The position numbers and the translations under genes are program-made. Of a stretch of 64,000 nucleotides of DNA, positions 2,512-55,376 are shown one piece after another. This DNA comes from an uncultured delta proteobacterium (GTDB lineage Bacteria; Desulfobacterota; Desulfobacteria; Desulfobacterales; JAFDCJ01): positions 32,001 through 96,000 of the forward strand of contig CAVYNY010000010.1 of the NCBI GenBank assembly GCA_963769935.1, in the 5' to 3' direction. Numbering within the stretch: position 1 is the first letter of the stretch; each line of letters starts with the position of its first letter. The notes beneath the pieces were generated by a model. The model saw nothing but the letters and a program-made list of their open reading frames with translations, had not been told where the DNA came from and made no database searches.

Positions 2512-2513
2512 GT

Positions 2514-2548
2514 CCGTTGCCCGTGGTCGGTGGCTGTTGATCCGTTGG
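2514..2548. repeat. Degenerate 7-mer array directly after the sucA stop
   Basis: ccgttgc ccgtggt cggtggc tgttgat ccgttgg. Confidence 0.55.
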
Positions 2549-2575
2549 GAATCAACACGGCTTGCCGGATAATCT

Positions 2576-2656
2576 CGGTACTGGAGTGATGGAGGATTGG
2601 CGGGTTGAAAATAAGACATCAATTTTTCAGCCATTACTCCAACACTCCGGTACTGC
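2576..2656. repeat. Inverted 8-mer-array cassette (TGGAGTRA / TCCAWYAC family)
   Basis: Left arm TGGAGTGA TGGAGGAT TGG; right arm CCATTAC TCCAACAC TCCGGTAC; same family as 50171-50274. Confidence 0.8.
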
Positions 2657-2778
2657 AACCTGTCCCGTCGAAGTTACGCCGATGCGTGACGAAGGCGGAT
2701 ACTCTAAAACTAACTAAATTTGTCCTGTTTTAGCGACATATATCAAAAAAACAATCAACGGACATTGCAGGAGTCAAC

Positions 2779-5575: not shown

Positions 5576-5584
5576 AGCAAAAAA

Positions 5585-5893
5585 GGTTTCGGGTGTCAGG
5601 TGGGAGTGGTTTCCAGCCCAGCGACTACGCTGACACCTCATATGAAACTACATCTCACACAGAGCGCTCAGAGATCACAGAGGTCTGGATTTACAGGCGC
5701 CTGCGGCGAAAGAAAAATGTTCTCTGCGGTCTCTGTGAGCTCTAACGGCTTGTCGGGTCGTAGCTCGAAGAGCGAAGCCTGAAAGTGGGCGTGATATTAA
5801 ATCCAACTGTGTCCGATTTCCAAAAGTTTCTTTTATGATCAGACCGGCCGTTGTTTTGGCCGGCGGCGGGGCTGACACCTGAACACTGAAACC
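5585..5893. repeat. Composite nested intergenic repeat (7-mer arms, inverted 9-mer arms, hairpin modules)
   Basis: GGTTTCG GGTGTCA GG versus CTGACACC TGAACAC TGAAACC; CACAGAG-n2 x3 (5658-5682) versus CTCTGYG-n2 (5722-5743); 55-bp core shared with 9231-9285. Confidence 0.8.
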
Positions 5894-5894
5894 T

Positions 5895-9109: not shown

Positions 9110-9311
9110 GTCCGTTGTCGGTTGTCCGTTGTATAAAATTGACAAAATGCAGTATACGATGTTGGACGTCCAATGTTCAATGTTCGATGTTCATTTTTTA
9201 ATTAGCCCCCCCGCCTGAAACTTGCCCAGGTCAAGGTTTCTTTTTCGACTAGACTGGCCGCTTTTCAGGCCAATGGCTGCGCTGATGTCTGACCACAGAC
9301 AACTGACATCA
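9110..9311. repeat. Composite repeat cassette between cydB and cydX
   Basis: GTCCGTT GTCGGTT GTCCGTT arm; five RAYGTYS 7-mers (9158-9192); 55-bp core (9231-9285); CTGACCA CAGACAA CTGACAT arm abutting the cydB stop. Confidence 0.8.
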
Positions 9312-10539: not shown

Positions 10540-10563
10540 AATCTTCAATCTTCAATCTTCAAT
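10540..10563. repeat. AATCTTC x3 7-mer arm containing the cydA stop codon
   Basis: aatcttc aatcttc aatcttc aat; the minus-strand TGA at 10552-10554 lies inside the array. Confidence 0.8.
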
Positions 10564-14041: not shown

Positions 14042-14160
14042 AAATTGAATAATTAAGGTATCCTGACTTCTATTAGGTGTTGCTTTCATCATGAAGAATT
14101 TAAAAATAAAAATGACAGAATTCCACAAATCTTCAATCTACAATTTTCAATATTCAATCC
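14023..14160. repeat. Inverted 7-mer cassette (ATTGAAW arms / AATYWTC arms) containing the cydD stop
   Basis: ATTGAAT ATTGCAG ATTGAAA ATTGAAT AATTAAG ... AATCTTC AATCTAC AATTTTC AATATTC AATCC. Confidence 0.85.
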
Positions 14161-15965: not shown

Positions 15966-16029
15966 AAATAACAAATCACGAGCACCAAATCTCAAATAAA
16001 TTCCAAATTCGAAATTTCAATCTTCAATA
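15966..16029. repeat. Degenerate CAAATY 7-mer array containing the cysK stop
   Basis: acaaatc acgagc accaaat ctcaaat aaattcc aaattcg aaatttc aatcttc aat. Confidence 0.6.
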
Positions 16030-39847: not shown

Positions 39848-41266
39848 TTAGTGGAGCATCTGCGCGGCGGCGCGGCTCAGTTCAATCAGGTGGCCCGGGA
39901 AAATGCCCACCACGGCGATCACCAGAACCATTGCCCCGGTAAGCACTTTGACGGGCAGGGACAGCTGAATGCCGGGCAGCACTTCATCGGGTTCCAGCAG
40001 ATAGGCGGCTTTTATGACCAGCAGATAGTAGTAAAGAGAAATCACCACGTTGATCATGGCTATCAGGGTAAGGGTAAAATAGCCCTTTTCCATGGCGGCG
40101 GTAAATAGCAAAAATTTTCCCGTAAATCCAATGGTCGGGGGAATGCCGGCCAGACTGAAAATCGACACCATCAGCGCCAGGGCCAACAGGGGTGCCCGGT
40201 GGTGCAATCCCGCCAGTTGAGAAATTGCAAGATTCCCGCCGTCGTCCGCCACTTTAATCACCACCAGAAAGACGGTAAATTTCATGATCAGCAAAGCGAC
40301 CGCATAAAAAATCGCGGCGGCGAAGCCGGCGGAATTCATACTCAAAATACCGATGAGAACATATCCGGCATGCGCCACGGTAGAGTAGGCCAGGAGTCTT
40401 TTGAAATCCTTCTGAACGATGGCGGCCAGATTGCCCACCGTCATCGAAACAATCGAAAGCGTAACCAGCACATGTACCAGATACATGCTGCCGTTGCCGC
40501 TGGCGGCGACCATGCGGGTTAAAATTGCAACTGCCGCCACTTTCGAGGCGGTTGCAATATAGGCGGACACCTGATTGGCAGCGCCCTGGTAGACATCCGG
40601 CGCCCAGAAGTGAAACGGAAAGACGGCCAGTTTGAAAAAAAATCCGCACAGGGTCAGCAGCAGTCCAATGACCCCGACCGGCGTTTCAAGAATGCCGGGC
40701 AGCACGTTAATCAGGTCCGTCACATACAGTGCCGGGGTGGTGCTGTAAAGTAAAGCGACACCGAACAGCATCACCGCCGAAGCAACGATGCCCGTCAGAA
40801 AATATTTAATACTCGCCTCAAGGCCCATCTTTTCATCGCGTCTTAAAGCCACCAGGATATAAAGTGAATAGCTGGAAAGCTCCAGGGCCACATATATGGT
40901 CAGAATGTGAACGCTGCTGACCAGCAACATCATGGCCAGCGTGCAGACATTCAGCAGCAGATAAAACTCCGGGTGATGCCGCTCGGCAACACCTTTGAGA
41001 TCCGAGCAAATTGATATTATCAAAAACAGTCCGACGGACAGCGCCACCTTAAATACCTGTGAGAAAAGATCCACCCGATATGCCTGAAAAAAGAGACCTC
41101 CCTGTTGACGGGCGGACGCCAGGCAGACCGCCACCCCGAGCAGCGCCAACAACAATGCCGTATTATAGGCCCGCCGGGGATTGCATTGCTTTGCCAGGGA
41201 TAGAAAAAGGAAAATCAGCCCGCCGGCAAAATAATAAAGCTCAGGATAAAAGAGAAACCAGTTCAT
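39848..41266 (-). CDS. nuoN: NADH-quinone oxidoreductase subunit N (start reassigned to MNWFLF)
   Basis: LELSS, EASIKYF, FKLAVFPFHFWAPDVYQGA, KRLLAYS, SLAGIPP..GF.GK. Confidence 0.93.
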   Translation of the reverse strand: MNWFLFYPELYYFAGGLIFLFLSLAKQCNPRRAYNTALLLALLGVAVCLASARQQGGLFFQAYRVDLFSQVFKVALSVGLFLIISICSDLKGVAERHHPEFYLLLNVCTLAMMLLVSSVHILTIYVALELSSYSLYILVALRRDEKMGLEASIKYFLTGIVASAVMLFGVALLYSTTPALYVTDLINVLPGILETPVGVIGLLLTLCGFFFKLAVFPFHFWAPDVYQGAANQVSAYIATASKVAAVAILTRMVAASGNGSMYLVHVLVTLSIVSMTVGNLAAIVQKDFKRLLAYSTVAHAGYVLIGILSMNSAGFAAAIFYAVALLIMKFTVFLVVIKVADDGGNLAISQLAGLHHRAPLLALALMVSIFSLAGIPPTIGFTGKFLLFTAAMEKGYFTLTLIAMINVVISLYYYLLVIKAAYLLEPDEVLPGIQLSLPVKVLTGAMVLVIAVVGIFPGHLIELSRAAAQMLH

Positions 41267-42738
41267 CACGGCAATCCATTCATAAACGGTATTGAGGCCG
41301 TCCCAATCATGTCGAACATCAGGGAGGGAAAAAGTCCGAACAGCACCAGAACGGCCAGCAAGACCATGCGGGGAATCCCCAGCCCAAAGGAAATATCCGG
41401 CAGGTGGGCATATTTTTCTTTTGGCGGGCCGTAAAAGGTTCGCTGCACAACCCGCAGCATGAACAGGGCGCTGACCACCAGGGCACATACCGCCAGAGTG
41501 CCCCCGAGCGGATAAGTTTTAAAGGCCGCAATGAAAACCATCAGCTCCCCCCAGAAACTGGCCAGACAGGGAACGCCGATGCCGGCCAGGGCGGCAACGA
41601 TGAAGTAGCTTGAAGCCACCGGCATGATGCGGCTCAGGCCGCCGAGATCGGCAATCATTTTGGTGTGGGTTCGATCGTATATATATCCGACGGACGAAAA
41701 TAATAAAGCGGTCATAATGCCGTGGGCAAACATCTGAAACACCGCCCCGTTTAGGCCGTCCACCGATACGGTGGCCAGGCCGAGGCCGACTATTCCCATG
41801 TGGGAAACGCTGGAGTAGCCGATACAGAATTTAAGATCTGTCTGGCTCAACCCCACAAAAACGCCATAGACAATGCCGATGGTTGCCAGCACGGCCATAA
41901 GCGGCGCCCAATACTGCCATCCTTCCGGGCATAGAAAAATACCCACCCGCAGCACACCGAAAGCACCGATTTTCATAAGCACCCCCGCGTGAACCATGCT
42001 CACCGAAGTGGGCGCGGCCACATGCCCCACCGGCGACCAGGTATGAAACGGCCATACAGCCGCCAGGATGCCGAAGCCGATAAACAGAAAAATAAAGGCA
42101 AATTTCTGCTCAAAAGGGGTGAAGATTCCGGGGTGCATAAGAACCGTGACATCGAATGTGTTCAGTCCCGCTTTCACGTATAAATAAATAATCGCCGGTA
42201 AAATCAGTGCACTGCCTGCCAGCAGGTAAAGCGTCAGCTTCATGGCGCCATATTCTTTGCGGGTTGAACCCCAGACGGCGATAAGCAGATACATGGGAAA
42301 AAGCGAGACATCGTACCAGACGAAAATGAAAAACAGATCCAGGCTCATAAAAAGCCCGAAAACACCGAGCACCAGCAGAAAGTAAAGGGCATAGAATTCC
42401 TTGACCCGATAGTCCAGCTCCCACATGGTCAGTACGCCGGTGAAAAACACGATGCCGGTCAGAAGCAGCATGGGCAGGTTAAATCCGTCGGCGGCATTCA
42501 GGTAGGTAATGCCGATCGACTCTACCCAGCGGTATCTCTCGACGAACTGGAGTCCGGCCTGACTCTTGTCGTAGGCCACAAACAGATAGATGGACAGGAT
42601 CAAGGTAATGCCGGAGAAAAACGCACTTACCCATTTGATCTGAGCCTTGCGCTCCTCGGGTATAATGAGGATCACAAAAAGACCGATCACGCAGCTTAAC
42701 AGAATTGTTGTAAGGTACGGAAATCCGGCAAATTCCAT
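41266..42738 (-). CDS. nuoM: NADH-quinone oxidoreductase subunit M
   Basis: PFHTW, AGVLMKIG, YSSVSHMG, QMFAHG, YDRTHT; antiporter-like; position in the operon. Confidence 0.92.
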   Translation of the reverse strand: MEFAGFPYLTTILLSCVIGLFVILIIPEERKAQIKWVSAFFSGITLILSIYLFVAYDKSQAGLQFVERYRWVESIGITYLNAADGFNLPMLLLTGIVFFTGVLTMWELDYRVKEFYALYFLLVLGVFGLFMSLDLFFIFVWYDVSLFPMYLLIAVWGSTRKEYGAMKLTLYLLAGSALILPAIIYLYVKAGLNTFDVTVLMHPGIFTPFEQKFAFIFLFIGFGILAAVWPFHTWSPVGHVAAPTSVSMVHAGVLMKIGAFGVLRVGIFLCPEGWQYWAPLMAVLATIGIVYGVFVGLSQTDLKFCIGYSSVSHMGIVGLGLATVSVDGLNGAVFQMFAHGIMTALLFSSVGYIYDRTHTKMIADLGGLSRIMPVASSYFIVAALAGIGVPCLASFWGELMVFIAAFKTYPLGGTLAVCALVVSALFMLRVVQRTFYGPPKEKYAHLPDISFGLGIPRMVLLAVLVLFGLFPSLMFDMIGTASIPFMNGLP

Positions 42739-42742
42739 AATT

Positions 42743-42777
42743 TAAAATGCCTAAAATGCCTAAAAGTGCCTAAAATT
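42743..42777. repeat. TAAAATGCC 9-mer array at the nuoM start
   Basis: TAAAATGCC TAAAATGCC TAAAAGTGCC TAAAATT. Confidence 0.85.
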
Positions 42778-42923
42778 AATGTGTTCTATCCCTTTTTTAA
42801 AAACAGGGGGCTATGCTCTCTAATTTTGCTTTTCGCGCTATTTCTTCTTGCCCAGTCCTATCCTGACACCCGAAACCTTACATATTATAGCCGACATGTC
42901 GTCAGATAACCGACTCTAACAAC

Positions 42924-44813
42924 TTAGAAGAAGAAGTAAATTCCTAGCAGCACCATGACCGCAAAAATCGTCAGCAGCCGGTATTGCACCATCCCAAGGT
43001 GAAAAAATGAGACCAGCCTTCCGGATTCGACGGTTCCTTTGCTTAATCCCTCGATGCCGCCGTCAATTATTTTTTTATCGTTTTGGGTAGCCAGATTGGA
43101 AACCACACCGTAAATGAAGACATCCAGAAAGCGCCGGTAAAAATGATCGATATACCAGCGTTCGGCAAAAAGATTATTCAAGGGCGCAATTTTTTCGACA
43201 AACCCCACCCGATCGGCACTGCGACGTCCGAATTCCACCCACGCCAGGATCACGCCGAAGGCCGCGCAGCTTAACGCCACCCACGGCAACCAGGCATGAT
43301 GGGCGCCGGGCGCAGCCAGGGCCGACAGGCTTCCCTTAAAAAAGTCTGCCAACTTCTCCTCAAAAAATCCCAGCAGGACTGTTACCGCCGCCAGCGTCAC
43401 CAACGGCCAGGCCATCGGCCAATATCCACTGTGCTGGTGAGCCGGCGCTTGGCCGGCATCCGTCTCGGGTGCAGATTCCCCCGGGAAAAGGATAATAAAA
43501 ATCAGCCGGAACGCGTAATAGGCGGTTAAAAATGCGCCCAGCAGCCCGGCCGCCAGCCACACAGGATTTTTTAATTCGGCCAGGGCACCCAGAATCAGCT
43601 CCTTGCTGAAAAACCCGGACAGAGGCGGCAGCCCGGCCAATGCCGCGGCCGCAATGACAAGACTGACGGTCGGGATTTTCAAACGGCGTCCGCCCTGCCG
43701 GCTGATTTCAAAAACATCATTGCTTCCATAAGCGTGAATGAACACGCCGGAGCAAAGAAACAGCAGCGCCTTGAATCCGGCATGGGTGGTCAGATGAAAC
43801 ACCCCGGCAAAAAAGCTGCCGGCCGCCAGGCCCATGATCATAAAACCCAACTGACTGATGGTGGAATAAGCCCAGACCTGTTTGATATCCCGACTGACCA
43901 TGGCCATGGTCGAGGCCAGCAGCATACTGATCGTGCCGATGGCAAGAAAAATAGTCATGGCCGTCGCCGAGAGGCTGAAAAACGGAAACAGACGGGCAAA
44001 AAGAAAGACCCCGGCCGCCACCATCGTTGCCGAGTGCAGCAGGGCGCTGACCGGTGTCGGGCCCTCCATGGCATCCGGCAGCCAGGTCAACAGCGGAAAT
44101 TGGGCGCTCTTGCCGATGATGCCCCCGAAAATCAAAAGTGCGGCCGTCGTAATCCACGCCGCTGACATCTGAGAGCTCACCTGGGGGCTGTTCAGCACCA
44201 GAATATTTAAGTTGCCCAGATGAACCAGCACCAGCAGGATCCCCAGAAAAAACGCAATGTCCCCGAAACGGGTCATCACGAATGCTTTTTTGCCGGCAGC
44301 GGTGGCGCTGAATTTTTCGTACCAGAAACCGATGAGAAGATATGAGCAAAGACCCACCAGCTCCCAGAAAACATACAGCTGAAGCATGGTGGGGGACAGG
44401 GTCAGATTCAGCATGGCCCACGCGAAAAGGGACATGAACGCATAATACCGGGAAAATCCGGCATCTCCGGCCATATACCCAAGGGAATAGATCTGGACCA
44501 AGAAACTGATCGCGGCCACAATCACAAGCATGAGCAGACCGGTTTGATCGAACAGAAAACCAAATGGAATGGTGATATCGCCCGATACCAGCCAGCGGCC
44601 GACGTATTCGATCGGAGTCTGCAGGTGCCAGTGCCGGGCAAGCAAAAAGACGGCACTTGCCAGGGATATTGTAACTGCGGCAAGCGACAGACCGGCGGAA
44701 AGTCGCGGCGAGTTCCTGGTAAAAACCATAATCAGAAAAAAGGCCACAAACGGCAGCCCGGTAGCCAGTATGGCGGCCGTCAGTGCCGGATTCTGAATAT
44801 AAGTTGGATTCAT
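42924..44813 (-). CDS. nuoL: NADH-quinone oxidoreductase subunit L
   Basis: WELVGLCSYLLIGFW, GKSAQFPL..WLPDAMEGPTPVSALLHSATMV, HAGFKALLFL. Confidence 0.95.
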   Translation of the reverse strand: MNPTYIQNPALTAAILATGLPFVAFFLIMVFTRNSPRLSAGLSLAAVTISLASAVFLLARHWHLQTPIEYVGRWLVSGDITIPFGFLFDQTGLLMLVIVAAISFLVQIYSLGYMAGDAGFSRYYAFMSLFAWAMLNLTLSPTMLQLYVFWELVGLCSYLLIGFWYEKFSATAAGKKAFVMTRFGDIAFFLGILLVLVHLGNLNILVLNSPQVSSQMSAAWITTAALLIFGGIIGKSAQFPLLTWLPDAMEGPTPVSALLHSATMVAAGVFLFARLFPFFSLSATAMTIFLAIGTISMLLASTMAMVSRDIKQVWAYSTISQLGFMIMGLAAGSFFAGVFHLTTHAGFKALLFLCSGVFIHAYGSNDVFEISRQGGRRLKIPTVSLVIAAAALAGLPPLSGFFSKELILGALAELKNPVWLAAGLLGAFLTAYYAFRLIFIILFPGESAPETDAGQAPAHQHSGYWPMAWPLVTLAAVTVLLGFFEEKLADFFKGSLSALAAPGAHHAWLPWVALSCAAFGVILAWVEFGRRSADRVGFVEKIAPLNNLFAERWYIDHFYRRFLDVFIYGVVSNLATQNDKKIIDGGIEGLSKGTVESGRLVSFFHLGMVQYRLLTIFAVMVLLGIYFFF

Positions 44814-44836
44814 CTTCGTACTCTAAAAGATTCGGA

Positions 44837-45139
44837 TTACTTCAATCGGTTGTAATCTGCCGGATCGACTGATCCGGTTTGTCGATAGGCCCACACGATC
44901 AGCGCCAATCCCACCGAGACTTCCGCCGCAGCGATGGCAAAGACAAACAGCACAATCGCCTGGCCATCCAGATTTTGCCAGAGCAAAGATGCGCCGACCA
45001 GCAATACTGCTGAGGCGTTGAGCATGATCTCTACCCCCAGCAGGATCATTATCAGGCTGCGGCGTAAGACCACACAGCTCACACCCATCAAAAAAAGCAG
45101 CCCGGCCAAAATGAGAACATGATTAAACGGGACTATCAT
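44837..45139 (-). CDS. nuoK: NADH-quinone oxidoreductase subunit K (start reassigned)
   Basis: EIMLNA, GQA, AAAEVSVGLA; overlaps the nuoJ stop (ATGA). Confidence 0.93.
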   Translation of the reverse strand: MIVPFNHVLILAGLLFLMGVSCVVLRRSLIMILLGVEIMLNASAVLLVGASLLWQNLDGQAIVLFVFAIAAAEVSVGLALIVWAYRQTGSVDPADYNRLK

Positions 45140-45666
45140 AATTCGCCCTCGGGGGTTTGTCCGGCCGCAGGTCTTCGCGGCAGCCTCGCCAGCAGCAACG
45201 CACCAATGATCGCTACCAGCAGCAGCAGCGATACAATCTCTATCGAAAGCCAATGCTCCTCAAAAATGTACTGCCCCAACACTGCGGGTTCGGCCCGGGC
45301 TGTTTTCAATACAATATGACTGTTCGGATCGGCGGCGATGAGGCCGAGGCCGAGGCCGAGGTAGACAAGCCCGCAAACGATTGCCGGCAGCCACTGCTTC
45401 AATGGCAATAACTGCTGGCCGCTTTTCTCGACTCTGAGCATCATGACGATAAACAAGAACAAGACCATGATCGCCCCGGCATAAATAATGACCTCCAAAA
45501 CGGCCAGCAACGGGGCGCCCAACAGATAAAAAAGCATGGCGCTGCCGAAAAATGAAAAAATCAGGTAAATCACGGCATGCACCAGATCACGCCGGGTAAT
45601 GGCCAGGCCGGTGGTGACCAGAATCAATACTGCCAAAAGATAGAAGATGATTGAATAGATAGTCAT
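45136..45666 (-). CDS. nuoJ: NADH-quinone oxidoreductase subunit J
   Basis: YAGAIMVLFLFIVMML, EIVSLLLLVAIIGA. Confidence 0.93.
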   Translation of the reverse strand: MTIYSIIFYLLAVLILVTTGLAITRRDLVHAVIYLIFSFFGSAMLFYLLGAPLLAVLEVIIYAGAIMVLFLFIVMMLRVEKSGQQLLPLKQWLPAIVCGLVYLGLGLGLIAADPNSHIVLKTARAEPAVLGQYIFEEHWLSIEIVSLLLLVAIIGALLLARLPRRPAAGQTPEGEL

Positions 45667-45692
45667 AATAATTAAATACTAAATACGGTTAA

Positions 45693-45788
45693 GCCGGTTG
45701 GCCGGTGAGCCCGTTAGCCGGTTGGCCGAGTTGGCATTAGGATTGAACCCTTAACCGGCATAACTGGCCAACGGGCAAACGGGCCAAC
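45693..45788. repeat. Inverted 8-mer cassette (GCCGGTTG / CAACGGGC)
   Basis: GCCGGTTG GCCGGTGA GCCCGTTA GCCGGTTG ... TAACCGGC ATAACTGGC CAACGGGC AAACGGGC CAAC. Confidence 0.85.
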
Positions 45789-45798
45789 AGTCTTTCTT

Positions 45799-46335
45799 CT
45801 AAGGCATATTGCTCTTGATATTAACCGGTTTGTCTTCTTTAATATGATCACCTTTGCCCCCGATGTCGGTTGCGATGCCGGCGTATTTATAAAAGCAATA
45901 CTGCTTATCTTTGCCCCCGTGGTCGACCAGCAAGTCCTCTTTTTCATAGACCAGTTTTAAGATGTCTTTCTCGCAGGTCTCAAAGTTGGGTGTCAGCTGA
46001 ATGGCTGAGGTCGGGCACGCTTCTTCACAGAGACCGCAGTAAATGCAGCGCGCAAAGTTGATGCGGAACCAGGGGGCATACCGGCGTCCGTTCTCTTTTT
46101 CAGCCGACTGCATGGATATGCAGCTGACCGGACAAACCGCCGAACACAGATAACAGGCCACGCAGCGTTCGCCACCGTCCGGATCCCGGGTCAGGATAAT
46201 CCGCGCCCGGGTGCGCGCCGGCAAGGGCCGCTTGTACTCCGGGTATTCTTCGGTAATGGGTTTGCGAAAAAGATGTTTGAATGTGGTCGCCAGACCGATT
46301 GCCAATGCTTTCAGTGCTTCAATTGCTTCCGCCAT
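45799..46335 (-). CDS. nuoI: NADH-quinone oxidoreductase subunit I
   Basis: Two 4Fe-4S motifs, CVACYLCSAVCP and CIYCGLCEEACP. Confidence 0.95.
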   Translation of the reverse strand: MAEAIEALKALAIGLATTFKHLFRKPITEEYPEYKRPLPARTRARIILTRDPDGGERCVACYLCSAVCPVSCISMQSAEKENGRRYAPWFRINFARCIYCGLCEEACPTSAIQLTPNFETCEKDILKLVYEKEDLLVDHGGKDKQYCFYKYAGIATDIGGKGDHIKEDKPVNIKSNMP

Positions 46336-46388
46336 GTTATTTCAGATTCCTGTTCGGTTCCATGCAAAATATAGAACCGCAATATCAA

Positions 46389-46477
46389 TTGCCGCTGGTC
46401 CGTTGGCAGTCGGTGTTCCGTCTCATACCGCCTTATACAACCGCAACAATGGACCATTGACAACGGACCAATGACCT
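46389..46477. repeat. Inverted 7-mer cassette abutting the nuoH stop
   Basis: tggtccg ttggcag ... caatgga ccattga caacgga ccaatga. Confidence 0.7.
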
Positions 46478-47459
46478 AGATCAACAGTATTGCTCCGGTT
46501 ACCATTATATTAATCAGAGCCGCCGGTATCAGCACCTTCCACCCCAACGCCATCAATTGGTCATAGCGTAGTCGCGGCAACGTGCCACGTATCCATATCA
46601 TGACCAGCGCCACCAGAATAATTTTAATAAACAGCCACAGCGTCGGCGGCAGAAAGGGGCCGCGCCAGCCGCCCAGGAAAAAAACGGCGGTCAACGCCCC
46701 CAGCACCTGCATATGCACATACTCGCCCAGGAAGAAAAGCCCGAAGCGCATGCCGCTGTATTCGGTATGGTAGCCCGCCCCCAGTTCGTTTTCTGCCTCC
46801 GGCAGATCAAAAGGAATGCGCTTGCTTTCGGCCATGGCGCTGAGGATAAAAATCACAAAGGATAGCGGCTGCACCAGGATGAATGGATAGTCGGCCTGGG
46901 CGTTGACGATGTCCACCAGGCTGAAGGAGCGCGCCAGCATCACGATCGGCACCAGCGAAAGACCCAGTGAAAGCTCATAGCTGATCATCTGGGCTGCACC
47001 GCGGATGCCGCCCAAAAGGCTGTATTTTGAATTGGAGGCCCAGCCGCCCAGAGCAACGCCGTAAACCCCCAGCGAAGACATCGCAAAAACAAACAGCAGT
47101 CCGACGTTAAGGTCGGAGACTACCAGCGGAATTTTCTTACCCCCGATCACCAAATTGTTGCCGAACGGCACAACCGCAAACATCAAAAGGGCGGTCATGG
47201 CCACCACTGCCGGTGCCAATAAAAATATCATGCGGTCGGCCGCCGCAGGCACGATATCTTCCTTGAGCATCATTTTAATGCTGTCGGCAACCGGCTGCAG
47301 CAACCCGAATTTGCCGGCCCGGTTGGGACCGTAACGAATCTGCAGCCGCGCCAAAAATTTGCGTTCAACGAGCACCAGATAGGCTGCCACCAGGAGCAGC
47401 ACTATCAGAACAAGGCCCAGTTTGATGATCAAAAATACAAAACCGATAAGCCAGTCCAT
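46476..47459 (-). CDS. nuoH: NADH-quinone oxidoreductase subunit H
   Basis: ERK..ARLQ.R.GPNR, GWASNSKYSLLG, PFDLPEAE.EL..GYHTEYSG. Confidence 0.96.
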   Translation of the reverse strand: MDWLIGFVFLIIKLGLVLIVLLLVAAYLVLVERKFLARLQIRYGPNRAGKFGLLQPVADSIKMMLKEDIVPAAADRMIFLLAPAVVAMTALLMFAVVPFGNNLVIGGKKIPLVVSDLNVGLLFVFAMSSLGVYGVALGGWASNSKYSLLGGIRGAAQMISYELSLGLSLVPIVMLARSFSLVDIVNAQADYPFILVQPLSFVIFILSAMAESKRIPFDLPEAENELGAGYHTEYSGMRFGLFFLGEYVHMQVLGALTAVFFLGGWRGPFLPPTLWLFIKIILVALVMIWIRGTLPRLRYDQLMALGWKVLIPAALINIMVTGAILLI

Positions 47460-47492
47460 AATCAGATGTCAGTTGTCCGTTGTTTGTTGTCC

Positions 47493-47568
47493 GGTGGGCG
47501 GTGCCCACCCTACATCATTAATTTTCCATATAACGAATCTATGCGTCGTAGGGTGGGCACCGCCCACC
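47493..47568. repeat. GTAG-type REP doublet (perfect 21-bp inverted pair, 34-bp spacer), preceded by TTGTCCG 7-mers (47466-47493)
   Basis: GGTGGGCGGTGCCCACCCTAC (47493-47513) and GTAGGGTGGGCACCGCCCACC (47548-47568); each is itself a hairpin. Confidence 0.85.
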
Positions 47569-47576
47569 TTCACAAA

Positions 47577-50087
47577 TTAGGTCCCTACCTTTTTAATTTT
47601 TTCCCGGCTGATGCTTGACATCCCGGTTTCAAAAATTTGCCAGGACAGCTTCCGGTGCCGAGGAACAACCAGCACGCCGGTAGCCATGTTTTCAACGACT
47701 TTCAGCTTTGCTTCAAGACTACCGTTTCCCGTATGTATGGCAACCGTATCGCCGTCAATCAGGCCCAAACTTGCGGCCGCGCTGGTGTGCATCATAACGG
47801 CCGGTTCCGGTTCCAGTTCCGCCAAACATTGAGAGTGGGCGGAAAGCAATTCAGAGCCGAACGTCAGATCGGTAAAAATTATCTTTAGATTTCCAATGCT
47901 TCCCCGGTCCTCAGCGGGCCGGCGGGACAAATCGGTCATAAACCGCAAATCGGTTTTCGCACCAAGATTAATTCGGATGCCTTCCTCCGGGATATCAGCG
48001 GTTAAATTAACCTCGGCCAGCTGCGTAACAATATCAGCCGGCCACGGGATAGAAGCTGCCGGAAGCATTTTATTTTCCGGCTTTATTTTTTCTTCAGCCA
48101 GTTCCGCCAGAGTCTGCCAAGCAGGCTTTGATTCTGCGCCGGGAGTCCCGGTTCCGTAAGTTCTGGGTGGATGGTCTCCTCCGCCGCTTTGGACGATCGG
48201 AACACCGCCGCTGCAGGCCTGCCGCACCGACTGGGCCCGTCCTTCCTGGTTGACGAATATCCCGTCGGTCTCATAGAGGGTGGTTGTAGGAATAAAAATA
48301 TGCATCTTTTGCAAAGCATCGAATTCGAGGTAGTCCAATACAATCAACAAATCAAGCGCATTCAAGGCCTGCTCTAATCGTCGGCGGTTCGGAAAATAGA
48401 AAAGAGGATCGGATTCTACCAGAATGAGCGATTTGACTTCTCCCTTTTCAATGGCTTCGATGATGTTCAGCAAGGATGCTTGGTCATCGGAGAGAAGCCC
48501 GCCTCCCAAGGCATTGGCGCCCGGCAGCAAGTAAAACAGACCGGCGCTTTTGTCGGCGGCCCGTAAAAACAGGGCCAGATCCGCTGCAACTTCAAGTCCC
48601 TGAGCGGGCAGGATGTCGGTGCCGCATACGATCACCGGCCGCTGACTGTGTTTGAGGCTTTCGGTGGCCGAGGTTATAAAATCCTCCGGGTATCCGGCCA
48701 TCAGATTCCGGTCCGGCAGCGCCCCAAAGAATTTTATCGCATTTTCCCCATAGGAGGCTGCTGGGTCGGGATCCACTGCGGCTTTGATAAATAATCCGAC
48801 CAAACCGCTCAGATCTTCCACGGCAGCCGGCAAATGCTTAAAATCCAGCGGAAGAGAAATGGGCCGGGGATCCATCACAAAAATTTTGGCACCGCTTCTT
48901 TGAGCCTGGCGCATGGCCAACGCCAGCATGGGCGCTTCGTTAATCGGATCCGCCCCGACGCAGAGGATAAAATCCGCTTTTTCCACCTCCCGCAATGACA
49001 CAACCAGTTCGGGCTCCAATCTGGCGATGACGGTTTTTACCTTCGAGGTTGTGGCCGGATCCATAAAATAGGCGGGACTTCGCCAGCCCATTGATTGACA
49101 GAGAAGCCTGAGCATGGCCTGGGTTTCCAGACTGCTGCGGGCGGAGCCGACGGCAGCGATTGCTGATGGCCCAGCGTCGCGGCTGGCCTTGCCCAGTTCG
49201 GCGATCGCAGCCTGCACTGCCTGGTCGTGAGAAGCCGTTTCGCCGCTGATTAATGCCCGGCGCGGTCTGGAGTCGAGGCTGGCGTAGAAAAATCCGTAGC
49301 GCCCCCGATCACAGATAAAATAACCGTTGACGTTTTCGCTGTAGCGGGCTTCCTGCCGCTTGACCTCCCGATACCGGATGTTGGCGATGGTGTGGCATCC
49401 CAGGCAGCAGTTGATACAAATGGAGGGGCTTCGCTGGTAATCCCAGCGCCGGCCGAAATAGCGGGACGGTTTATCCGTATATACGCCGGTGGGGCAGATA
49501 TCGCTCAAGTTGCCGCTGAAGGGGCTTTGCAGCACGCCGTCCTGGAAGCGTCCAAAATAGGTGCGGTTGGCAAGGCGCATCACACCCAGATCGTAAAACC
49601 CGCTGAATTCCTGATAGTAGCGGCTGCAGCGGTAGCAGTGAATGCAGCGATTCATCTCGTGCTGAATCAGGGGGCCCAGGTATTGATCCGTGTAGGTGCG
49701 CTTTTTGCCCGGAAATCTTCGGATCCCGTGACCGCCGGAGACCGTCATATCCTGCAGCAGGCAGTGGCCGCCCTCATCGCAAACCGGGCAATCATGGGGA
49801 TGGTTGACCATCAGCCATTCAATGACATGTTTGCGAAAGTCCACCACCTCTTCGTCCGTAGTGGACACCACCATGCCGTCCCGGGCCGCCACCATACAGC
49901 TCATCTGGATGCCTTTTACCGGCCCGTCGATAAATTTAACGGCACAAACCCGGCAAGCGCCCACCGATCCCAAGGCGGGATGATAACAAAACCGCGGAAT
50001 CATGATCCCCAGCCGGGCGGCGGCCTCGATCACCATAGTTCCGGGTGCAACTTCTATTTCTTGATCATCGATGACAAGTTTGGGCAT
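47577..50087 (-). CDS. nuoG: NADH-quinone oxidoreductase subunit G
   Basis: CYHP...GACRVC, HPHDCPVCDEGGHC, RCIHCYRC...ICPTG, plus an N7-type CINCCLGC...CDRGR. Confidence 0.95.
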   Translation of the reverse strand: MPKLVIDDQEIEVAPGTMVIEAAARLGIMIPRFCYHPALGSVGACRVCAVKFIDGPVKGIQMSCMVAARDGMVVSTTDEEVVDFRKHVIEWLMVNHPHDCPVCDEGGHCLLQDMTVSGGHGIRRFPGKKRTYTDQYLGPLIQHEMNRCIHCYRCSRYYQEFSGFYDLGVMRLANRTYFGRFQDGVLQSPFSGNLSDICPTGVYTDKPSRYFGRRWDYQRSPSICINCCLGCHTIANIRYREVKRQEARYSENVNGYFICDRGRYGFFYASLDSRPRRALISGETASHDQAVQAAIAELGKASRDAGPSAIAAVGSARSSLETQAMLRLLCQSMGWRSPAYFMDPATTSKVKTVIARLEPELVVSLREVEKADFILCVGADPINEAPMLALAMRQAQRSGAKIFVMDPRPISLPLDFKHLPAAVEDLSGLVGLFIKAAVDPDPAASYGENAIKFFGALPDRNLMAGYPEDFITSATESLKHSQRPVIVCGTDILPAQGLEVAADLALFLRAADKSAGLFYLLPGANALGGGLLSDDQASLLNIIEAIEKGEVKSLILVESDPLFYFPNRRRLEQALNALDLLIVLDYLEFDALQKMHIFIPTTTLYETDGIFVNQEGRAQSVRQACSGGVPIVQSGGGDHPPRTYGTGTPGAESKPAWQTLAELAEEKIKPENKMLPAASIPWPADIVTQLAEVNLTADIPEEGIRINLGAKTDLRFMTDLSRRPAEDRGSIGNLKIIFTDLTFGSELLSAHSQCLAELEPEPAVMMHTSAAASLGLIDGDTVAIHTGNGSLEAKLKVVENMATGVLVVPRHRKLSWQIFETGMSSISREKIKKVGT

Positions 50088-50170
50088 GGGGTTGTCCGAA
50101 AATCATTCTTCAGATGGTCACTCCATCATTTAACCGGTGGCCTTTTTAGTTAGGCTTTTGGCCGTAATAA

Positions 50171-50274
50171 TGGAGTGGTGGAGTACTGGAGTAATGGAAA
50201 AATCCCCAAAAGGATCTAAGGAATATAATTCCGCTAATATCCAATTCTCCAATACTCCATTACTCCAACACTCC
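50171..50274. repeat. Inverted 8-mer cassette (TGGAGTAA / TCCAWYAC)
   Basis: TGGAGTGG TGGAGTAC TGGAGTAA TGGA ... TCCAATTC TCCAATAC TCCATTAC TCCAACAC TCC. Confidence 0.88.
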
Positions 50275-50339
50275 GTCAATCAATTAAAACACATAAACTT
50301 CATCAAACAAAAAATCTCAATTTTTTAAGATAGCCCAAT

Positions 50340-51605
50340 CTATCTGAAGGGGCACTTCTTCCGGCTGATATGTTCCTGGATCTCACCCTTAAAATGCTTG
50401 AGCAAACTTTCCAGCGGCGCGATGGCGCCGGGGGCAAAGGCGCAGTAAGCATTCCACAGATGGTGGCACATGCGCTCGAGCATGGGGATATATTCCGGTT
50501 CACCCCGGCCGTCTTCAATCCGTCTGAGAAGTTCCAGAATGTAGGGCAGCCCTTCACGACACGGCGTGCACCAGCCGCAGGACTCCCGGGCAAAAAATTC
50601 AATTAAATTGACAGTGGCACCCACCAGACAGGTTTTATGGTCGAATACCATAATGGCACCGGTTCCAAGACGGTTGCCGATGTCGCGCAGCGGCTTAAAA
50701 TCCATCTCAATGTCGTAGTGTTCTAGCGGCAGGAAACCGGTGGAGGCCCCGCCGGGCAGGCAGGTTTTAAATTCCGAACCTGCCGGCATGCCGCCGGCAT
50801 GTTCTTCTATGATTTCGCTGAGACGGACCCCCATCGGCAGCTCATAACAGCCCGGTTTGTTCACTTTGCCGCTGACGCCGAAAATCTTGGTGCCGGCACC
50901 GCTTTCTGTTAATGCAAGATCTTTGAACCACTGTCCGCCGTTTCTGATGATATGCGGCAGACAGGCAAAGGTTTCAACATTGGAAAGCACGGTGGGCTTG
51001 CCCCAGAGTCCTTTTTCCGTCGGATACGGCGGCGGTTTCATGGGATTTGGCCGTTTGCCCATCAGCGCGTTCAACTGGGCGGTAACCTCACCGCATATGT
51101 AGCGGCCGGCACTGCGATGAACGACAAGCTCCAGGGAATATTTGCTGCCTAAAATGTTTTGGCCCAGATAGCCCTCCCGGCGGGCGATTTCAATTTCTCT
51201 TTCCAGAATTGCAGCAGCATTTTCATACTCGGGGCGGATAAAAATTATGCCCTTTTCCGCCTGCGAAGCATACCCGCCGATGATGATGCCCTCGATCAGC
51301 ATGTGCGGATCGGCGTGGATCAGCACCCGGTCCTTGAAGGTACCCGGCTCCATTTCATCGGCATTGCACACGATATAACGCGGAAATTCCGCATCATCGG
51401 CTACCGACATCAGCTTCATACCGGTTGGAAAGGCCGCCCCGCCGCGGCCGAGCAGGTTGGCATCCATGATCGTCTGCCGGACATCCTTGAGAGAATAATC
51501 CTTCAGAACGTTCGCCAGCGGCTGGTAGCCGCCGCTTCGGCGGTATTCTTCAAGGGTTGCAATCCGGTCCGGTTTGCGGTTTTGAAGTAGAACCTGTGGA
51601 TACAT
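50340..51605 (-). CDS. nuoF: NADH-quinone oxidoreductase subunit F
   Basis: GRGGAAFPTG, NADEMEPGTFKDR, YICGE, ESCGWCTPCREG. Confidence 0.96.
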   Translation of the reverse strand: MYPQVLLQNRKPDRIATLEEYRRSGGYQPLANVLKDYSLKDVRQTIMDANLLGRGGAAFPTGMKLMSVADDAEFPRYIVCNADEMEPGTFKDRVLIHADPHMLIEGIIIGGYASQAEKGIIFIRPEYENAAAILEREIEIARREGYLGQNILGSKYSLELVVHRSAGRYICGEVTAQLNALMGKRPNPMKPPPYPTEKGLWGKPTVLSNVETFACLPHIIRNGGQWFKDLALTESGAGTKIFGVSGKVNKPGCYELPMGVRLSEIIEEHAGGMPAGSEFKTCLPGGASTGFLPLEHYDIEMDFKPLRDIGNRLGTGAIMVFDHKTCLVGATVNLIEFFARESCGWCTPCREGLPYILELLRRIEDGRGEPEYIPMLERMCHHLWNAYCAFAPGAIAPLESLLKHFKGEIQEHISRKKCPFR

Positions 51606-51606
51606 T

Positions 51607-51641
51607 TAAAATGCCTAAATTGCTCTAAAATGCCTAAAATT
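51607..51641. repeat. TAAAATGCC 9-mer array at the nuoF start
   Basis: TAAAATGCC TAAATTGCTC TAAAATGCC TAAAATT; a second 7-mer array TAATAAC GAATAAC TATTAAC lies at 51707-51727. Confidence 0.82.
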
Positions 51642-51759
51642 AGGAAGAAAATCCATCTATCATTTCATCTATCGTACATATAGATGCAGATGCGATCAGC
51701 AAGTTCTAATAACGAATAACTATTAACTCCAAATTGAGCGATTTTCGCTCAATTAAGGC

Positions 51760-52233
51760 TTAAGCTTCCGCTTTTAATTTCTGCAAAATGCCGTCAATTT
51801 TTTCGGCCGTCAAATTCCCGTATGCTTTGCGGTTGATCAGCATGGCCGGCGATCGATCGCAGTAGCCGATACAGCACACGGTTAAAAGCGTAAACAATCC
51901 GTCCGGGGTTGTTTCACCGGGTTGGACACCCAGCTTCCGGCATAGGTAATCCCGCACGGATTCATACCCGTTCATCCAGCAGACCACGCTGTCACAGACA
52001 TGAATCACGTATTTTCCAACCGGCTCACGATAGATAAACGTGTAAAAGGTGGCCAGTTGCTCAATTTCAAGGGGCGACATATCCAGCAGCCGCGCGGCTT
52101 CCTGCACCCCTTCGTCGGTCAGACTGCCGTAAAAATCCTGAATCGCGAACATCACATCCACGGCCAGCTCCCGCGGATGGTCGACGTGGTCGATTTGTTT
52201 CAGCAAAGATTTTTCAAGTTCTGCAGGTATCAT
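51760..52233 (-). CDS. nuoE: NADH-quinone oxidoreductase subunit E
   Basis: ATFY, VCDSVVC, CCIGYCDRSP 2Fe-2S ligands. Confidence 0.95.
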   Translation of the reverse strand: MIPAELEKSLLKQIDHVDHPRELAVDVMFAIQDFYGSLTDEGVQEAARLLDMSPLEIEQLATFYTFIYREPVGKYVIHVCDSVVCWMNGYESVRDYLCRKLGVQPGETTPDGLFTLLTVCCIGYCDRSPAMLINRKAYGNLTAEKIDGILQKLKAEA

Positions 52234-52266
52234 AAAATTGTTCGCTCAGGGGTCGATCAACCGTTA

Positions 52267-52327
52267 TTCCACCTTCCGACTTCCCCATTCCGCCTTCCGC
52301 ATTCGACATTCCGACTTCCGACTTCAG
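52267..52327. repeat. TTCCGAC-type 7-mer array, 8 copies, abutting the nuoBCD stop
   Basis: TTCCACC TTCCGAC TTCCCCA TTCCGCC TTCCGCA TTCGACA TTCCGAC TTCCGAC TTCAG. Confidence 0.9.
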
Positions 52328-52328
52328 T

Positions 52329-54719
52329 TCAACGGTCTATATCCGGCAAGATGTAATCAAAAGATCCGATAATGGCGATCAAATCGGCAATCGTCTCGCC
52401 CACCGCCATCAGGGGCATCACCTGAACATTGGCAAAGCCGGGACCCCGGATGCGGGTGCGGTAGGAATAGCCCAGACCGTCGCTGACCACATAATAGCCC
52501 TGCTCCCCGCGGGGTATTTCACATGCAGCGTAAGCCTCGCCCACGGGTATTTTAGGGCCGCGGGTCACGTTGATGAAGTGATGAATCAGGCTTTCAATGT
52601 CGGCCAGCATATCTTCGCGTCGCGGGATGACATAGCGGTAGTCGTCGGTGACATAGCGGCCGGCCGGCATGTTCTCAGACGCCTGCTTGATGATTCCAAG
52701 GCTCTGGCGCATTTCTTCTATCCGCACCAGATAGCGGGCATAGCAGTCGCCGCCGGTGGCGGTCGGCACTTCAAAATCAAAATTTTCGTAACCCGAATAG
52801 GGAAACGCTTTACGCAGATCCCACTGCAAACCGCAAGCCCGCAGATTCGGACCGGTGACCCCCCAACGCATGGCATCTTCGCGGGTCAGCCGGCCGATTC
52901 CCATGGTTCGCGCTTTAAAAATTGGATTTTTGCGGAGCAGGCTTTCATATTCGGCAAGGTACTTGGGAAATATTTTCACAAAATTATCGACCGCCGCCGA
53001 CCAGCCCTCCGGCAGATCGGCGGCCACCCCGCCCAGCCTGAACCAGGAAGGGTGCAGTCGGCCGCCGGTGATTAATTCAACAATATCCAGAACCATCTCG
53101 CGCTCGCGAAAGGTGTAGAAATTGGGAGCCATGGCGCCGACGTCGTGGGCGTAGGTGCCCAGCCACACCAGATGGTTGCTCAGCCGGAAAAGCTCGCTCA
53201 GCATTACCCGGATGACCTGCGCCCGCTCGGGCACCTTGATGCCGGCCAGAGTCTCCACTGCCATGACATACGGCAGATTGTTGGCGGCCCCGGCCAGATA
53301 ATCGACCCGATCCGTATACGGTATAAACTGGTGCCAGGTTTGCCGCTCGGCGATTTTTTCCGCTGCGCGGTGGTGATAACCGATATCCATATCCATGGAA
53401 GTAATCTCTTCACCTTCGAGCGTTACGATATAGCGGATCAGGCCATGAGTGCTGACGTGGTGCGGCCCCATGTTCAAAATGAGCCGATCGTCCCGGCCGG
53501 ACGCTTGGACATAAACACCGCCGTCCAGGGGTTGGTGCCGGCGGGCATCGGCCAGGGTGTAAGGCGGCATCTCGGTCGCCCGGCCCGGGTAGTTTTTCCG
53601 CAGGGGATGACCTTCCCAGTCATGGGGCATGAGCAGGCGCCGGAGGTTCGGATGACCTTTAAAATGCACGCCGAAAAGATCGAAAACCTCCCGCTCGTAC
53701 CAGTTGGCCGACGGCCAGATATCCGTTACGCTTGCGGTGGCCGGATCCCGCCCCGCCAACGGCACTTTTATACGGATTCGGGCGGCTGGTTCAAAGGAAA
53801 GCAAATGGTAGACAAGGGTGTAATCCGGGTAGGCTGCACGCTTGCGCCGGGCGGATTCATCAATGGCGGTAAGATCATCCAGGCGCTGAAAGCGGGGGAC
53901 GGCCTCTGAGTTGAGAAAACGCAGCACATCTTTAAACCGGTTTGGGGCCACCTGCAGCGTCAGCATATCACTGGAGTGGGCTGCCGGCGCCACTGCTTCG
54001 CCGAAGCGATTTTGCAGTGCGCGGGCAAGCTCCTGTGACTTTGAATCCGGCACGATTTGCGCCGCCGGCGGCGTCCACATCCCATCGGAGCGACTGTCCC
54101 AAAATTGGGTGGGCACCACCGAACTGCCCCGGATAGCCGTGCCTTCCATGCCCGGGCCGCGCGGATCCCTGGATTTGGTTTGACCGTCCACCAGAATTGG
54201 TTTTGTGGTGCCCTGGCTGCCCCCTTCAAGATGCAGGACGGGGCGGGCGGGTTTTTCTTGCGCCGTAATTTTATCCTGCAGCATGACCAGACCTTGCAAA
54301 ACGGCCTCCGGCCTGGGCGGACAACCCGGGATATAAACATCCACCGGCAGGATCTGATCTACCCCCTGCACCACACTGTAAACATCATACATGCCGCCGC
54401 AGTTGGAGCAGGAGCCCATGGAGATCACCCAGCGGGGTTCCGCCATTTGTTCATACAGCCTTAATACGACCGGTGCAATCTTTTTAAAAACGGTTCCGGA
54501 AATAATTAATAAATCCGCCTGCCGCGGTGATGGACGCAGAACCTCAGCTCCGAAGCGGGCCATATCGTAACGGGCGGTGAAGGCCGTGGCTTCCTCGACA
54601 AAACAGCAGGAAAGTCCGAAGAACATGGGCCACAAACTGTACTTGCGGGCCCAGTTGATAACGAGGTCGACATTGTCGAGGAGTCGTTCGTTCAGCTTTT
54701 TATGTGCGTCGGCCCCCAC
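52329..54719 (-). CDS. nuoBCD: Fused NADH-quinone oxidoreductase subunit B/C/D
   Basis: NuoB ([29 protein letters not shown]), NuoC ([21 protein letters not shown]) and NuoD (GPHH.STHG, TDRVDY, DIDR) in one 796-aa ORF. Confidence 0.94.
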
Positions 54720-55102
54720 TCAAGCCCCCCTTTGTTCCATACATAAATCAGGCCAAGAATCAACACAGCAATAAAAAAAGATATGTGCAGCCAGCCGGCC
54801 CAGCCCAATTTTTCCCAGGCGATGGCCCACGCAAATATATAGGCCGCCTCCACGTCAAAAAGTAAAAAAAAGATGGCCACCAGGTAAAACGGCACCGGAT
54901 AACGCAAGCGGGCACTGCCGGTCGGAATGACGCCGCTTTCATAGGGTCTTAATTTTTCGGTATTCGGTTTTTTTTCCCCGAGCCAGGAAGCTATAAAAAG
55001 CAGCAGGCCGATGATTGCCATAACCATCAGGCCGAATATGACCAGGCTTAAAACCCCGGGCTCCCAGGGAGACAGCCCGCCTGAATTTACGAGAGATTTC
55101 AC
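54692..55102 (-). CDS. nuoA: NADH-quinone oxidoreductase subunit A (GTG start reassigned)
   Basis: [33 protein letters not shown] before the GTG at 55102. Confidence 0.93.
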
Positions 55103-55376
55103 GATCCCCTCCGCCAAGACCTCTTCGTTCGTCGTGAGATTAAACAGCAAAAATCAGCTTTGGCACAATGGATGACAACCCGAATCGCATCAGAGCGGAT
55201 TTTGGTCATTGCACTGCTGCTTCTGGCAGCGATTCGCGGGTTAAAAAAATACAACAGGGTGAAATTTATGCAGGAATATCTCAATTTATGCAAGCATAAA
55301 AAAATTTCTAGCTGTTTTTCTTTAAAGCCGTGCATTTTAATCGATTACCGGATTAACCCATCAATCCTTGTTTTAT

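Follow-up and report, generated by a model that had tools for sequence, protein, structure and literature searches.

The window analysed here is a stretch of 64,000 nucleotides from an uncultured delta proteobacterium (G000:C10:32001-96000, that is, contig C10 of the source genome G000, which comprises 7.99 Mb in 41 contigs). It contains a nuo operon for complex I in which every long intergenic junction is occupied by a cassette of short tandem repeats. We propose, with a probability of about 0.6, that these cassettes are relics, at different stages of decay and tolerated behind stop codons, of an insert that in its full form carries a gene for a four-helix-bundle protein (PF05635) between arms made of 7-9-nt units. 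It is likely that they do not regulate complex I.

Tandem Repeats Finder (TRF) detected arrays at 7/7 long nuo junctions (BCD-E, 95 nt; E-F, 154; F-G, 252; G-H, 117; H-I, 140; I-J, 132; L-M, 185) and at 0/4 tight ones (A-BCD, -28 nt; J-K, -4; K-L, 23; M-N, -1), exactly as an earlier, sequence-only reading of the window had stated (coordinates in Table 1). The repeats that this reading listed junction by junction were recovered at all seven sites, with the reservation that the CTGACAC tract at L-M amounts to only two to three degenerate units. Its description of the arms as often inverted applies to three of the seven junctions (F-G, H-I and I-J) and to G-H, where a doublet of repetitive extragenic palindromes (REPs) is accompanied by one arm; at BCD-E, E-F and L-M the arms are unpaired. 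The BCD-E array is a 7-mer of 7.6 copies at 72% match without partner arm, and the inverted 7-mers at H-I are detected by TRF as a period of 14 only. Compared with shuffled sequences, F-G, G-H and I-J fold better (z -5.3, -8.9 and -4.3), H-I and E-F modestly so (z -2.7 and -2.2), and BCD-E and L-M no better (z +1.5 and +0.2). The helices reach 20 bp at F-G, 22 bp at G-H and 5-11 bp at the other junctions.

None of the seven nuo cassettes holds an open reading frame (ORF), and the full inserts, with a PF05635 ORF within inverted repeats, lie elsewhere in the genome and genus. PF05635 genes occur in 23/23 genus genomes; the source genome has seven, six of which are flanked by both arms while at the seventh, which is frameshifted, only the upstream arm was seen. 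Of 35 four-helix loci, 33 have a neighbouring array, and 25 of these are flanked by arrays on both sides; the set consists of the 30 loci returned by the search plus five more from genome G007 rather than of all matches. The suggestion in the sequence-only reading that such arrays flank four-helix-bundle genes is supported, with the gene as the cargo of the full form. For the encoded protein, matches comprise PDB 2RLD and 2GSC, with five chains of each, and TIGR02436. Since no catalytic activity is known for it, the gene is a cargo or helper and not the complete autonomous partner that had been suggested. GxxExxY genes, the other suggested partner, were dismissed as arm cargo: the sole intact one (G000:C8:187357-189068) has no 7-9-mer arms and sits between direct copies of a longer repeat that occurs in three copies within 1.7 kb.

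Several observations connect the nuo arrays with these full inserts. In a protein tree the four-helix loci cluster by repeat unit, and protein identity correlates with arm sequence (Mantel r 0.55, 0/5000 permutations as high; 38/40 proteins). Arm similarity was expressed as 5-mer cosine against 38 four-helix arms. By this measure five of the nuo arrays have a match among the gene-bearing arms: BCD-E (0.84, with those of locus L042), F-G (0.84 to the arms around the source genome's own four-helix gene on C9), I-J (0.67 to L029, of a family that also surrounds the source genome's four-helix gene on C11), the E-F 7-mer (0.56 to the L038 arms) and the L-M 9-mer (0.53 to L041). The E-F 9-mer gives a weak match only (0.37 to the L041 arm). 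Genome-wide, 1122 of the 2096 arrays found by a lenient scan match some gene-bearing arm, against 256 column-permuted controls. Moreover, the H-I junction of one congener holds a frameshifted four-helix remnant (profile E 2e-8; Pfam alone E 0.05); across 39 aa it is 77% identical to a gene that is intact in that congener and has the same arm family. The four-helix gene is codirectional with the upstream gene at 34/35 assignable loci (5/40 not assignable), and 38/40 four-helix loci have protein neighbours.

In the mechanism that we favour, a full insert consisting of a G-rich arm of 7-9-nt units, the four-helix gene and an inverted C-rich arm would enter just after a host stop codon, in host orientation, and be expressed off the host transcript. 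Its likely mode of spread is as single-stranded DNA, assisted by rolling-circle (HUH) transposases, with the arms probably bound by the four-helix protein that belongs to them. Internal deletion would reduce the insert to a hairpin, and more decay or slippage to a single arm, while cleavage by RNase III at the two long stems (F-G and G-H) would be a side effect. That the long nuo junctions all carry cassettes would largely result from the insert being what lengthens a junction in a tight operon.

The link to HUH transposases comes from a clade of IS91-family transposons that carries both arms and a four-helix gene. In G007, six near-identical four-helix genes belong to one unit repeated at different sites, which reads, in order, constant left end, TGGAATAA arm, four-helix gene, IS91 transposase, small Cys-rich ORF, inverted arm and constant right end. 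The transposase has PF14319 and PF04986 and matches NCBIfam NF033538 (294 bits, cut-off 125), with an intact example at locus L129; a genome scan gave 28 loci, of which seven are 100% identical to the query and hence not independent. Of 202 metagenome loci the best 80 were analysed: 41, whose transposase identity reaches 65% or more, were taken as the armed clade and the other 39 as its sister group. The armed clade has arms at 21/22 visible left ends and 31/31 right ends and the four-helix gene at 20/22, whereas the sister group has the same ends but 0/32 each for left arm, right arm and four-helix gene. At one locus of the sister group, L186, the 8-mer pair is a different one and the four-helix gene is reversed, which a quick tree suggests to be a second gain of arms and gene. 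Another, L188, was labelled armed by a loose pattern; a stricter test found no arm in its group. In the armless sister group (L160-L199) the ends are conserved and a small Cys-rich ORF lies downstream, which in its L069 form has no NCBIfam match.

The ratio of nonsynonymous to synonymous substitutions is 0.05-0.10 in 11/12 computable pairs, all against L129, which indicates that the four-helix gene of the armed clade is under purifying selection. The armed left end was found in 12/23 genus genomes, and seven of 20 fetched left-end sites close with a right end after 90-486 bp, without four-helix gene. Since three of these mini-elements at different sites have one deletion junction in common, the mini-element itself has likely moved. 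The left end is constant in armed and armless members while the flanks vary, and in the four copies of G007 for which both ends are available no target duplication is visible by eye. The genus's ordinary IS91 transposases, 23-30% identical to the armed clade, have no paired arms (4/30 fetched loci belong to the armed clade), and viral contigs contain no relative of the armed transposase. A complex prediction of the IS91 transposase TnpA with two four-helix chains scored 0.01, which is evidence neither way. At L051:511-1787 (G007:C3), a many-copy GTAG-type REP-like palindrome interrupts an armed IS91 transposase and is followed by an IS110-like gene; a second REP-like copy accounts for shorter element forms by recombination.

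Comparative evidence for HUH movement concerns the TGGAATAA family only; the other families may have moved in the same way. Whether an HUH enzyme acting in trans mobilises most unit families, those of the nuo operon included, is an extension that we put forward tentatively. A broader proposal is more doubtful still: arm and four-helix gene might form a packaging module, in which a protein clade would recognise the unit that goes with it, hold together both ends of a single-stranded intermediate and hand anything enclosed by the arms to HUH rolling-circle transposases, and that one IS91 lineage gained twice and whose empty copies would be the source of the bacterial heptamer excess and of ORF-bearing intervening sequences (IVSs) in rRNA.

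The nuo cassettes are part of a genome-wide population. A strict scan found 908 arrays of period 7, 8 or 9 (501, 244 and 163), 860 of them intergenic, against none in 1.83 Mb of shuffled spacers, and periods of 4-6 and 10-13 gave 3-25 in the genome. Periods of 7-9 thus stand out, as the sequence-only reading implied. Under the lenient scan, 2096 arrays were counted where the control gave 39. They include 206 inverted pairs, and in 153 of these the arms lie less than 300 nt apart. Among spacers of 80-300 nt, arrays occupy 504/1723 aligned (29%), 97/342 convergent (28%) and 14/224 divergent ones (6%; aligned versus convergent, p 0.79), classes that carry some error because the gene calls are hexamer-model predictions. 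Arrays shun promoter regions, yet not gene ends outside operons, and they favour transcribed gaps downstream of stops. Single arrays lie within 10 nt of a stop codon in 98/395 cases versus 29 expected, and within 10 nt of a start codon in 22/395, without excess, so that the earlier remark on arms abutting gene ends applies across the genome for stops but not for starts. On the top strand, the G-rich arm stands left and the C-rich arm right in aligned and convergent spacers regardless of gene strand, and more weakly so in divergent ones; arm polarity is a symmetric property of the insert. The families AAATTCG and AACGTCC belong to a minority in which chirality is reversed, the A/C-rich arm coming first (L058, L059; junctions in L005, L006 and L012).

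These data also bear on the view that there is no element family at all and that local slippage or template switching creates arrays in tolerant spacers, where four-helix genes and IS91 merely land. Unit copy number does differ between close relatives, 251 distinct strict units were counted, and 490/641 occupied spacers hold a single array. Against it stand the restriction of periods to 7-9, a fixed chirality and inner motifs common within a family; for instance, 146/249 gene-less GAAGATT arms are accompanied by the inner motif of the gene-bearing copy, versus 139/4132 (3%) of the background, a point that also favours descent from four-helix inserts. Furthermore, the protein clade tracks the unit across genomes, and arms are found throughout the armed IS91 clade and not in its sister group. 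Protein-arm concordance and the contrast between these two IS91 groups largely refute this view, which we consider highly improbable. A GCTTCGCT-type mini-hairpin was tried as universal recognition site and rejected, as it occurs at 19/249 GAAGATT arms and at 0-1 in eight other families.

The sequence-only reading placed the cassettes in polycistronic energy-metabolism transcripts and suggested that they may act as units of RNA processing or stability that set subunit stoichiometry. What recommends this idea, under which the units would be domesticated, is the occupancy of all seven long nuo junctions versus 29% of comparable spacers, its rise from 20% to 37% as runs get longer and from 18% to 39% as the codon score increases, and the 33/75 occupied spacers flanked by Fe-S genes (p 0.006 uncorrected, one of six classes tested). 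The long F-G and G-H helices in a genome that has an RNase III gene, the retention of some start-side arms in congeners and the slightly fewer Shine-Dalgarno (SD) motifs near arrays are also compatible with it. The restriction to such transcripts was not borne out. Convergent spacers are occupied equally, paralogs of nuo, suc and cyd genes show no enrichment (8/22 versus 488/1681, p 0.48), and the nuo run, for which the detector gives 6/8 (p 0.01), takes 6th place among 144 runs, with a cell-division cluster ahead, and is therefore not exceptional after multiple testing.

The behaviour of the junctions among relatives argues more directly against a stoichiometry role. Across eight junctions in 20 nuo loci from 19 congeneric genomes, 116 alleles were scored. 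Every junction has at least two alleles of no more than 36 nt, 26 in total, and an array was detected in 50 of the 86 long alleles, with many different families represented. I-J is a 4-nt overlap in two congeners, and K-L, tight in the source genome, is long in 7/11. These families swap while the nuo proteins are 58-94% identical. Between contigs from other studies, 130 nt of L-M (with the CTGACAC tract within) are absent in two runs, one such contig differing at 19/536 aligned letters; 14 nt, i.e. two units, of H-I are absent from a related contig; and one 9-mer unit (9 nt) of L-M is absent from a near-identical contig that possibly comes from the source sample. The suggestion that the cassettes are non-autonomous elements is supported, and they turn over between relatives. 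In addition, the mRNA strand shows no excess of G:U pairs (G:U 164 versus A:C 159 in 117 arm pairs of aligned spacers), and equal oppositions give no sign of selection for RNA pairing. Short alleles at each junction, changes of unit and the absence of G:U bias make a stoichiometry role unlikely. To these should be added the BCD-E and L-M junctions, which fold no better than shuffles, and the subunits of the Nuo complex, which assemble one to one. All in all, we judge the regulatory reading very unlikely. Contig joints at I-J, F-G, E-F and BCD-E (three metatranscriptome runs and one DNA run, with mixed relatives) were examined as well and are best read as spacers of other organisms. At the nuoL-nuoM junction of L018 (G008:C52), the nuoL stop apparently comes from the stub of a TTTTAGGCA arm, so arms can turn into gene-end sequence.

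The full inserts could also have travelled through RNA, in the manner of a 23S rRNA IVS: RNase III would excise the hairpin and an Avd-like protein would help a reverse transcriptase to re-insert it after stop codons. Co-orientation at 34/35 loci and proximity to stops fit such a route, and the genome has RNase III and 10 reverse-transcriptase matches. The four-helix protein has weak similarity to Avd of diversity-generating retroelements (19.9 bits versus a cut-off of 80, E 7e-4), far under the cut-off, and 0/7 four-helix genes adjoin the 10 reverse-transcriptase matches. The best precedent is the Coxiella burnetii 23S rRNA IVS with its S23p (PF05635) ORF, heptamer repeats and RNase III cleavage, as given in the excerpt of PMC4990558; the GACAGAT unit of this IVS is present again in the arm at four-helix locus L026. 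Opposed to this route are the missing G:U excess and the equal occupancy of convergent spacers, the 7/9 reverse-transcriptase loci without an array within 1.5 kb, and the fact that a DNA HUH transposase is the sole catalytic partner seen enclosed by arms in a stable unit. We regard the RNA route as unlikely. A decayed group II intron-like reverse-transcriptase segment within nested arms (G000:C9:127686-129052, with relatives on C9 and C14) was discarded as a partner and is read as a later insertion.

A number of points weigh against the descent of the nuo cassettes from four-helix inserts. The nuo junctions have no IS91 ends, with neither a right-end profile match nor a left-end motif on C10, so that the mobiliser of their cassettes is one that we infer; the source genome as a whole has approximately 16 weak-to-good right-end and 4 left-end matches, versus 112 TGGA-type arm matches, and no transposase of the armed clade. 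Armless IS91 relatives with identical ends exist, which means that arms are dispensable to the transposon and may merely have been picked up. Co-inheritance alone would suffice to explain the protein-unit concordance, and binding is not implied. G-H (best cosine 0.23), H-I and the L-M 7-mer match none of the 38 gene-bearing arms. In a six-frame search of all spacers of the source genome, the six four-helix matches were all known genes, hence its empty cores keep no gene remnant. Among the compared relatives, no clean empty target site was seen at a nuo junction, and several short alleles retain an arm stub; short alleles may have arisen by deletion and need not predate an insertion. The start-side arms (G-H, L-M and E-F) and the BCD-E arm persist across many congeners, with G-H-like tracts in most, and may thus have been put to use by the host. 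SD motifs are present in 48/121 cases (40%) when an array lies within 25 nt of the start, versus 499/996 (50%) otherwise (p 0.03), and arms may locally serve as translation leader. Finally, redox-flanked spacers are mildly enriched in a logistic model (35/87, odds ratio 1.8, z 2.4).

REP elements are non-autonomous intergenic hairpins mobilised in trans by REP-associated tyrosine transposases (RAYTs, Y1 HUH enzymes). At G-H, the doublet belongs to this class, as a GTAG-type REP that is palindromic, paired and multi-copy and whose 27 genome matches are mostly facing pairs. Unlike REPs, which are short palindromes of fixed sequence, the cassettes are built of tandem-unit arms. Eleven PF01797 matches in the genome are RAYT candidates, some with only loose 8-base motif matches nearby, and 0/11 of these Y1 transposase loci are flanked by 7-9-mer arrays.

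The inserts can be compared with four other systems, as these are presented in excerpts of the cited papers. As in the Coxiella IVS, terminal inverted repeats surround a decay-prone four-helix gene with variable tandem heptamers upstream; the present inserts differ in lying between protein genes instead of the 23S rRNA gene, and in comprising dozens of unit families, mostly gene-less (PMC4990558). In common with IS91, IS801 and IS1294, the armed clade has a Y2 HUH transposase, distinct ends, non-autonomous derivatives and, upstream of tnpA, a small ORF, and no target duplication was observed; its left end matches the terIS of IS801/IS1294, where a palindrome lies beside the 5'-GTTC of the bottom strand (PMC13181058). 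It departs from them by inverted 8-mer arms just inside the ends, a four-helix gene upstream and a Cys-rich ORF downstream, and by the far flank next to oriIS, which varies and mostly starts with T or A in place of a GTTC/CTTG-type target (PMC13181058). The Xanthomonas heptamer GGGAATC and the Nostoc heptamer GGGGA(C/T)T, for which generally no link to mobile elements was found in the excerpted text, are likewise intergenic genome-wide, rare between divergent genes, G-rich on the strand after stops, often in inverted pairs and next to different genes in related species; there, one G4-forming unit is used, whereas here many non-G4 units of 7-9 nt occur (PMC4692102). The TAACTGA repeats of Beggiatoaceae, cyanobacteria and Bacteroidetes are also heptamer arrays near starts, with downstream genes of no functional pattern. 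They are single-unit direct repeats, read as a translational signal, with no transfer mechanism evident to their author, who speculates that the mobile part is a repeat-binding protein (PMC4679880, excerpt).

At title and abstract level, the top literature matches contain no link between 7-9-mer arms, PF05635 and IS91, although supplements may hold relevant tables. What this analysis adds is an IS91 clade with arms, four-helix gene and gene-less armed mini-copies, of the TGGAATAA type like nuo F-G. The locus ties together heptamer repeats, ORF-bearing rRNA IVSs and PF05635 proteins, none of which has an accepted origin or function in the excerpts of PMC4990558, PMC4692102, PMC4679880 and PMC13181058, and the armed clade offers a testable origin for unexplained bacterial repeats of 7 to 9 bases. 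With transposase, ends, arms, four-helix gene and natural mini-derivatives, the intact element L129 makes the role of arm and protein assayable by transposition. Besides, hairpins of this kind in respiratory operons should not be taken for stoichiometry signals.

Table 1. Host operon, nuo junction arrays and other cassettes (window positions, as throughout the text unless a contig is named).
Feature	Position	Strand	Basis
Host operon nuoA, BCD, E, F, G, H, I, J, K, L, M, N	39848..55150	(-)	Gene calls, NCBIfam
BCD-E unpaired 7-mer array, GGAAGTC/GGAATGC on mRNA strand, immediately after nuoBCD stop	52267..52325		TRF, array scan, sequence
E-F 7-mer array, TAATAAC type	51706..51728		TRF, array scan
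E-F 9-mer array TAAAATGCC, abuts nuoF start	51607..51640		TRF
F-G 8-mer arm, G-rich on mRNA strand, TGGAGTAA type	50240..50274		TRF, array scan, sequence
F-G inverted partner arm; 20-bp unbroken helix with other F-G arm	50171..50198		TRF, helix
G-H GTAG-type REP, copy 1 of inverted doublet	47548..47568	(+)	27 genome matches at <=3 mismatches
G-H REP, copy 2; 22-bp helix with copy 1	47493..47513	(-)	
G-H 7-mer array, A/C-rich, ACAACGG/ACAACTG on mRNA, abuts nuoH start	47462..47491		TRF
H-I 7-mer arm immediately after nuoH stop	46446..46475		TRF, sequence
H-I degenerate inverted partner arm	46393..46412		Seen in sequence and fold, below array detectors
I-J 8-mer arm, G-rich on mRNA strand, GTTGGCCC type	45753..45788		TRF, array scan
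I-J inverted partner arm	45693..45735		TRF, fold, array scan
L-M CTGACAC tract, weak, with 2-3 degenerate units; under the threshold of both detectors	42863..42882		Sequence
L-M 9-mer array TAAAATGCC, abuts nuoM start	42743..42776		TRF, array scan
sucA-sucB spacer: TGGAGT/ACTCCA arm pair nested within GTCCGTT/AACGGAC arms	2512..2778		Sequence, fold
Convergent spacer: GGTGTCA/TGACACC arms enclosing multi-copy MITE-like repeat	5576..5894		
7-mer arrays in spacer after cydB	9110..9192		
cydA-cydB spacer: GAAGATT-family arm after cydA stop	10540..10563		
cydD-like/cydC-like spacer: full pair of GAAGATT/AATCTTC arms without gene, together with the inner motif of this family	14021..14159		
7-mer array in convergent spacer	15998..16028		

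The identity of the nuo operon rests on NCBIfam matches above cut-off for BCD, G, I, L, M and N, while the names dcw, suc, cyd and CODH were given by recognition from the translations, without family scans. Close homologs of the studied elements carry the labels Desulfobacterales or deltaproteobacteria. An Rfam search of the window gave zero matches, and no transposase is recognisable among the window's gene calls, no family scan of all its ORFs having been made. Cassettes are indeed present in the suc and cyd operons, as the sequence-only reading had it; two convergent, non-operon spacers (5576-5894 and 15932-16016) hold them as well. The MITE-like repeat (resembling a miniature transposable element with inverted repeats) at approximately 5650-5810, inside the GGTGTCA arms, has many near-identical copies across the genome. 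Elsewhere in the window, sucA (2-oxoglutarate dehydrogenase E1-like) is split by a frameshift near 2100 (120-2114 and 2101-2511), either an assembly error or a pseudogene. A 525-aa gene contains a coding repeat of 24 nt in 4.4 copies (8305-8409), and two tandem 657-aa paralogs (24277-26250 and 26661-28634), CO-dehydrogenase-like by recognition, have 81% DNA identity and an identical N-terminus.

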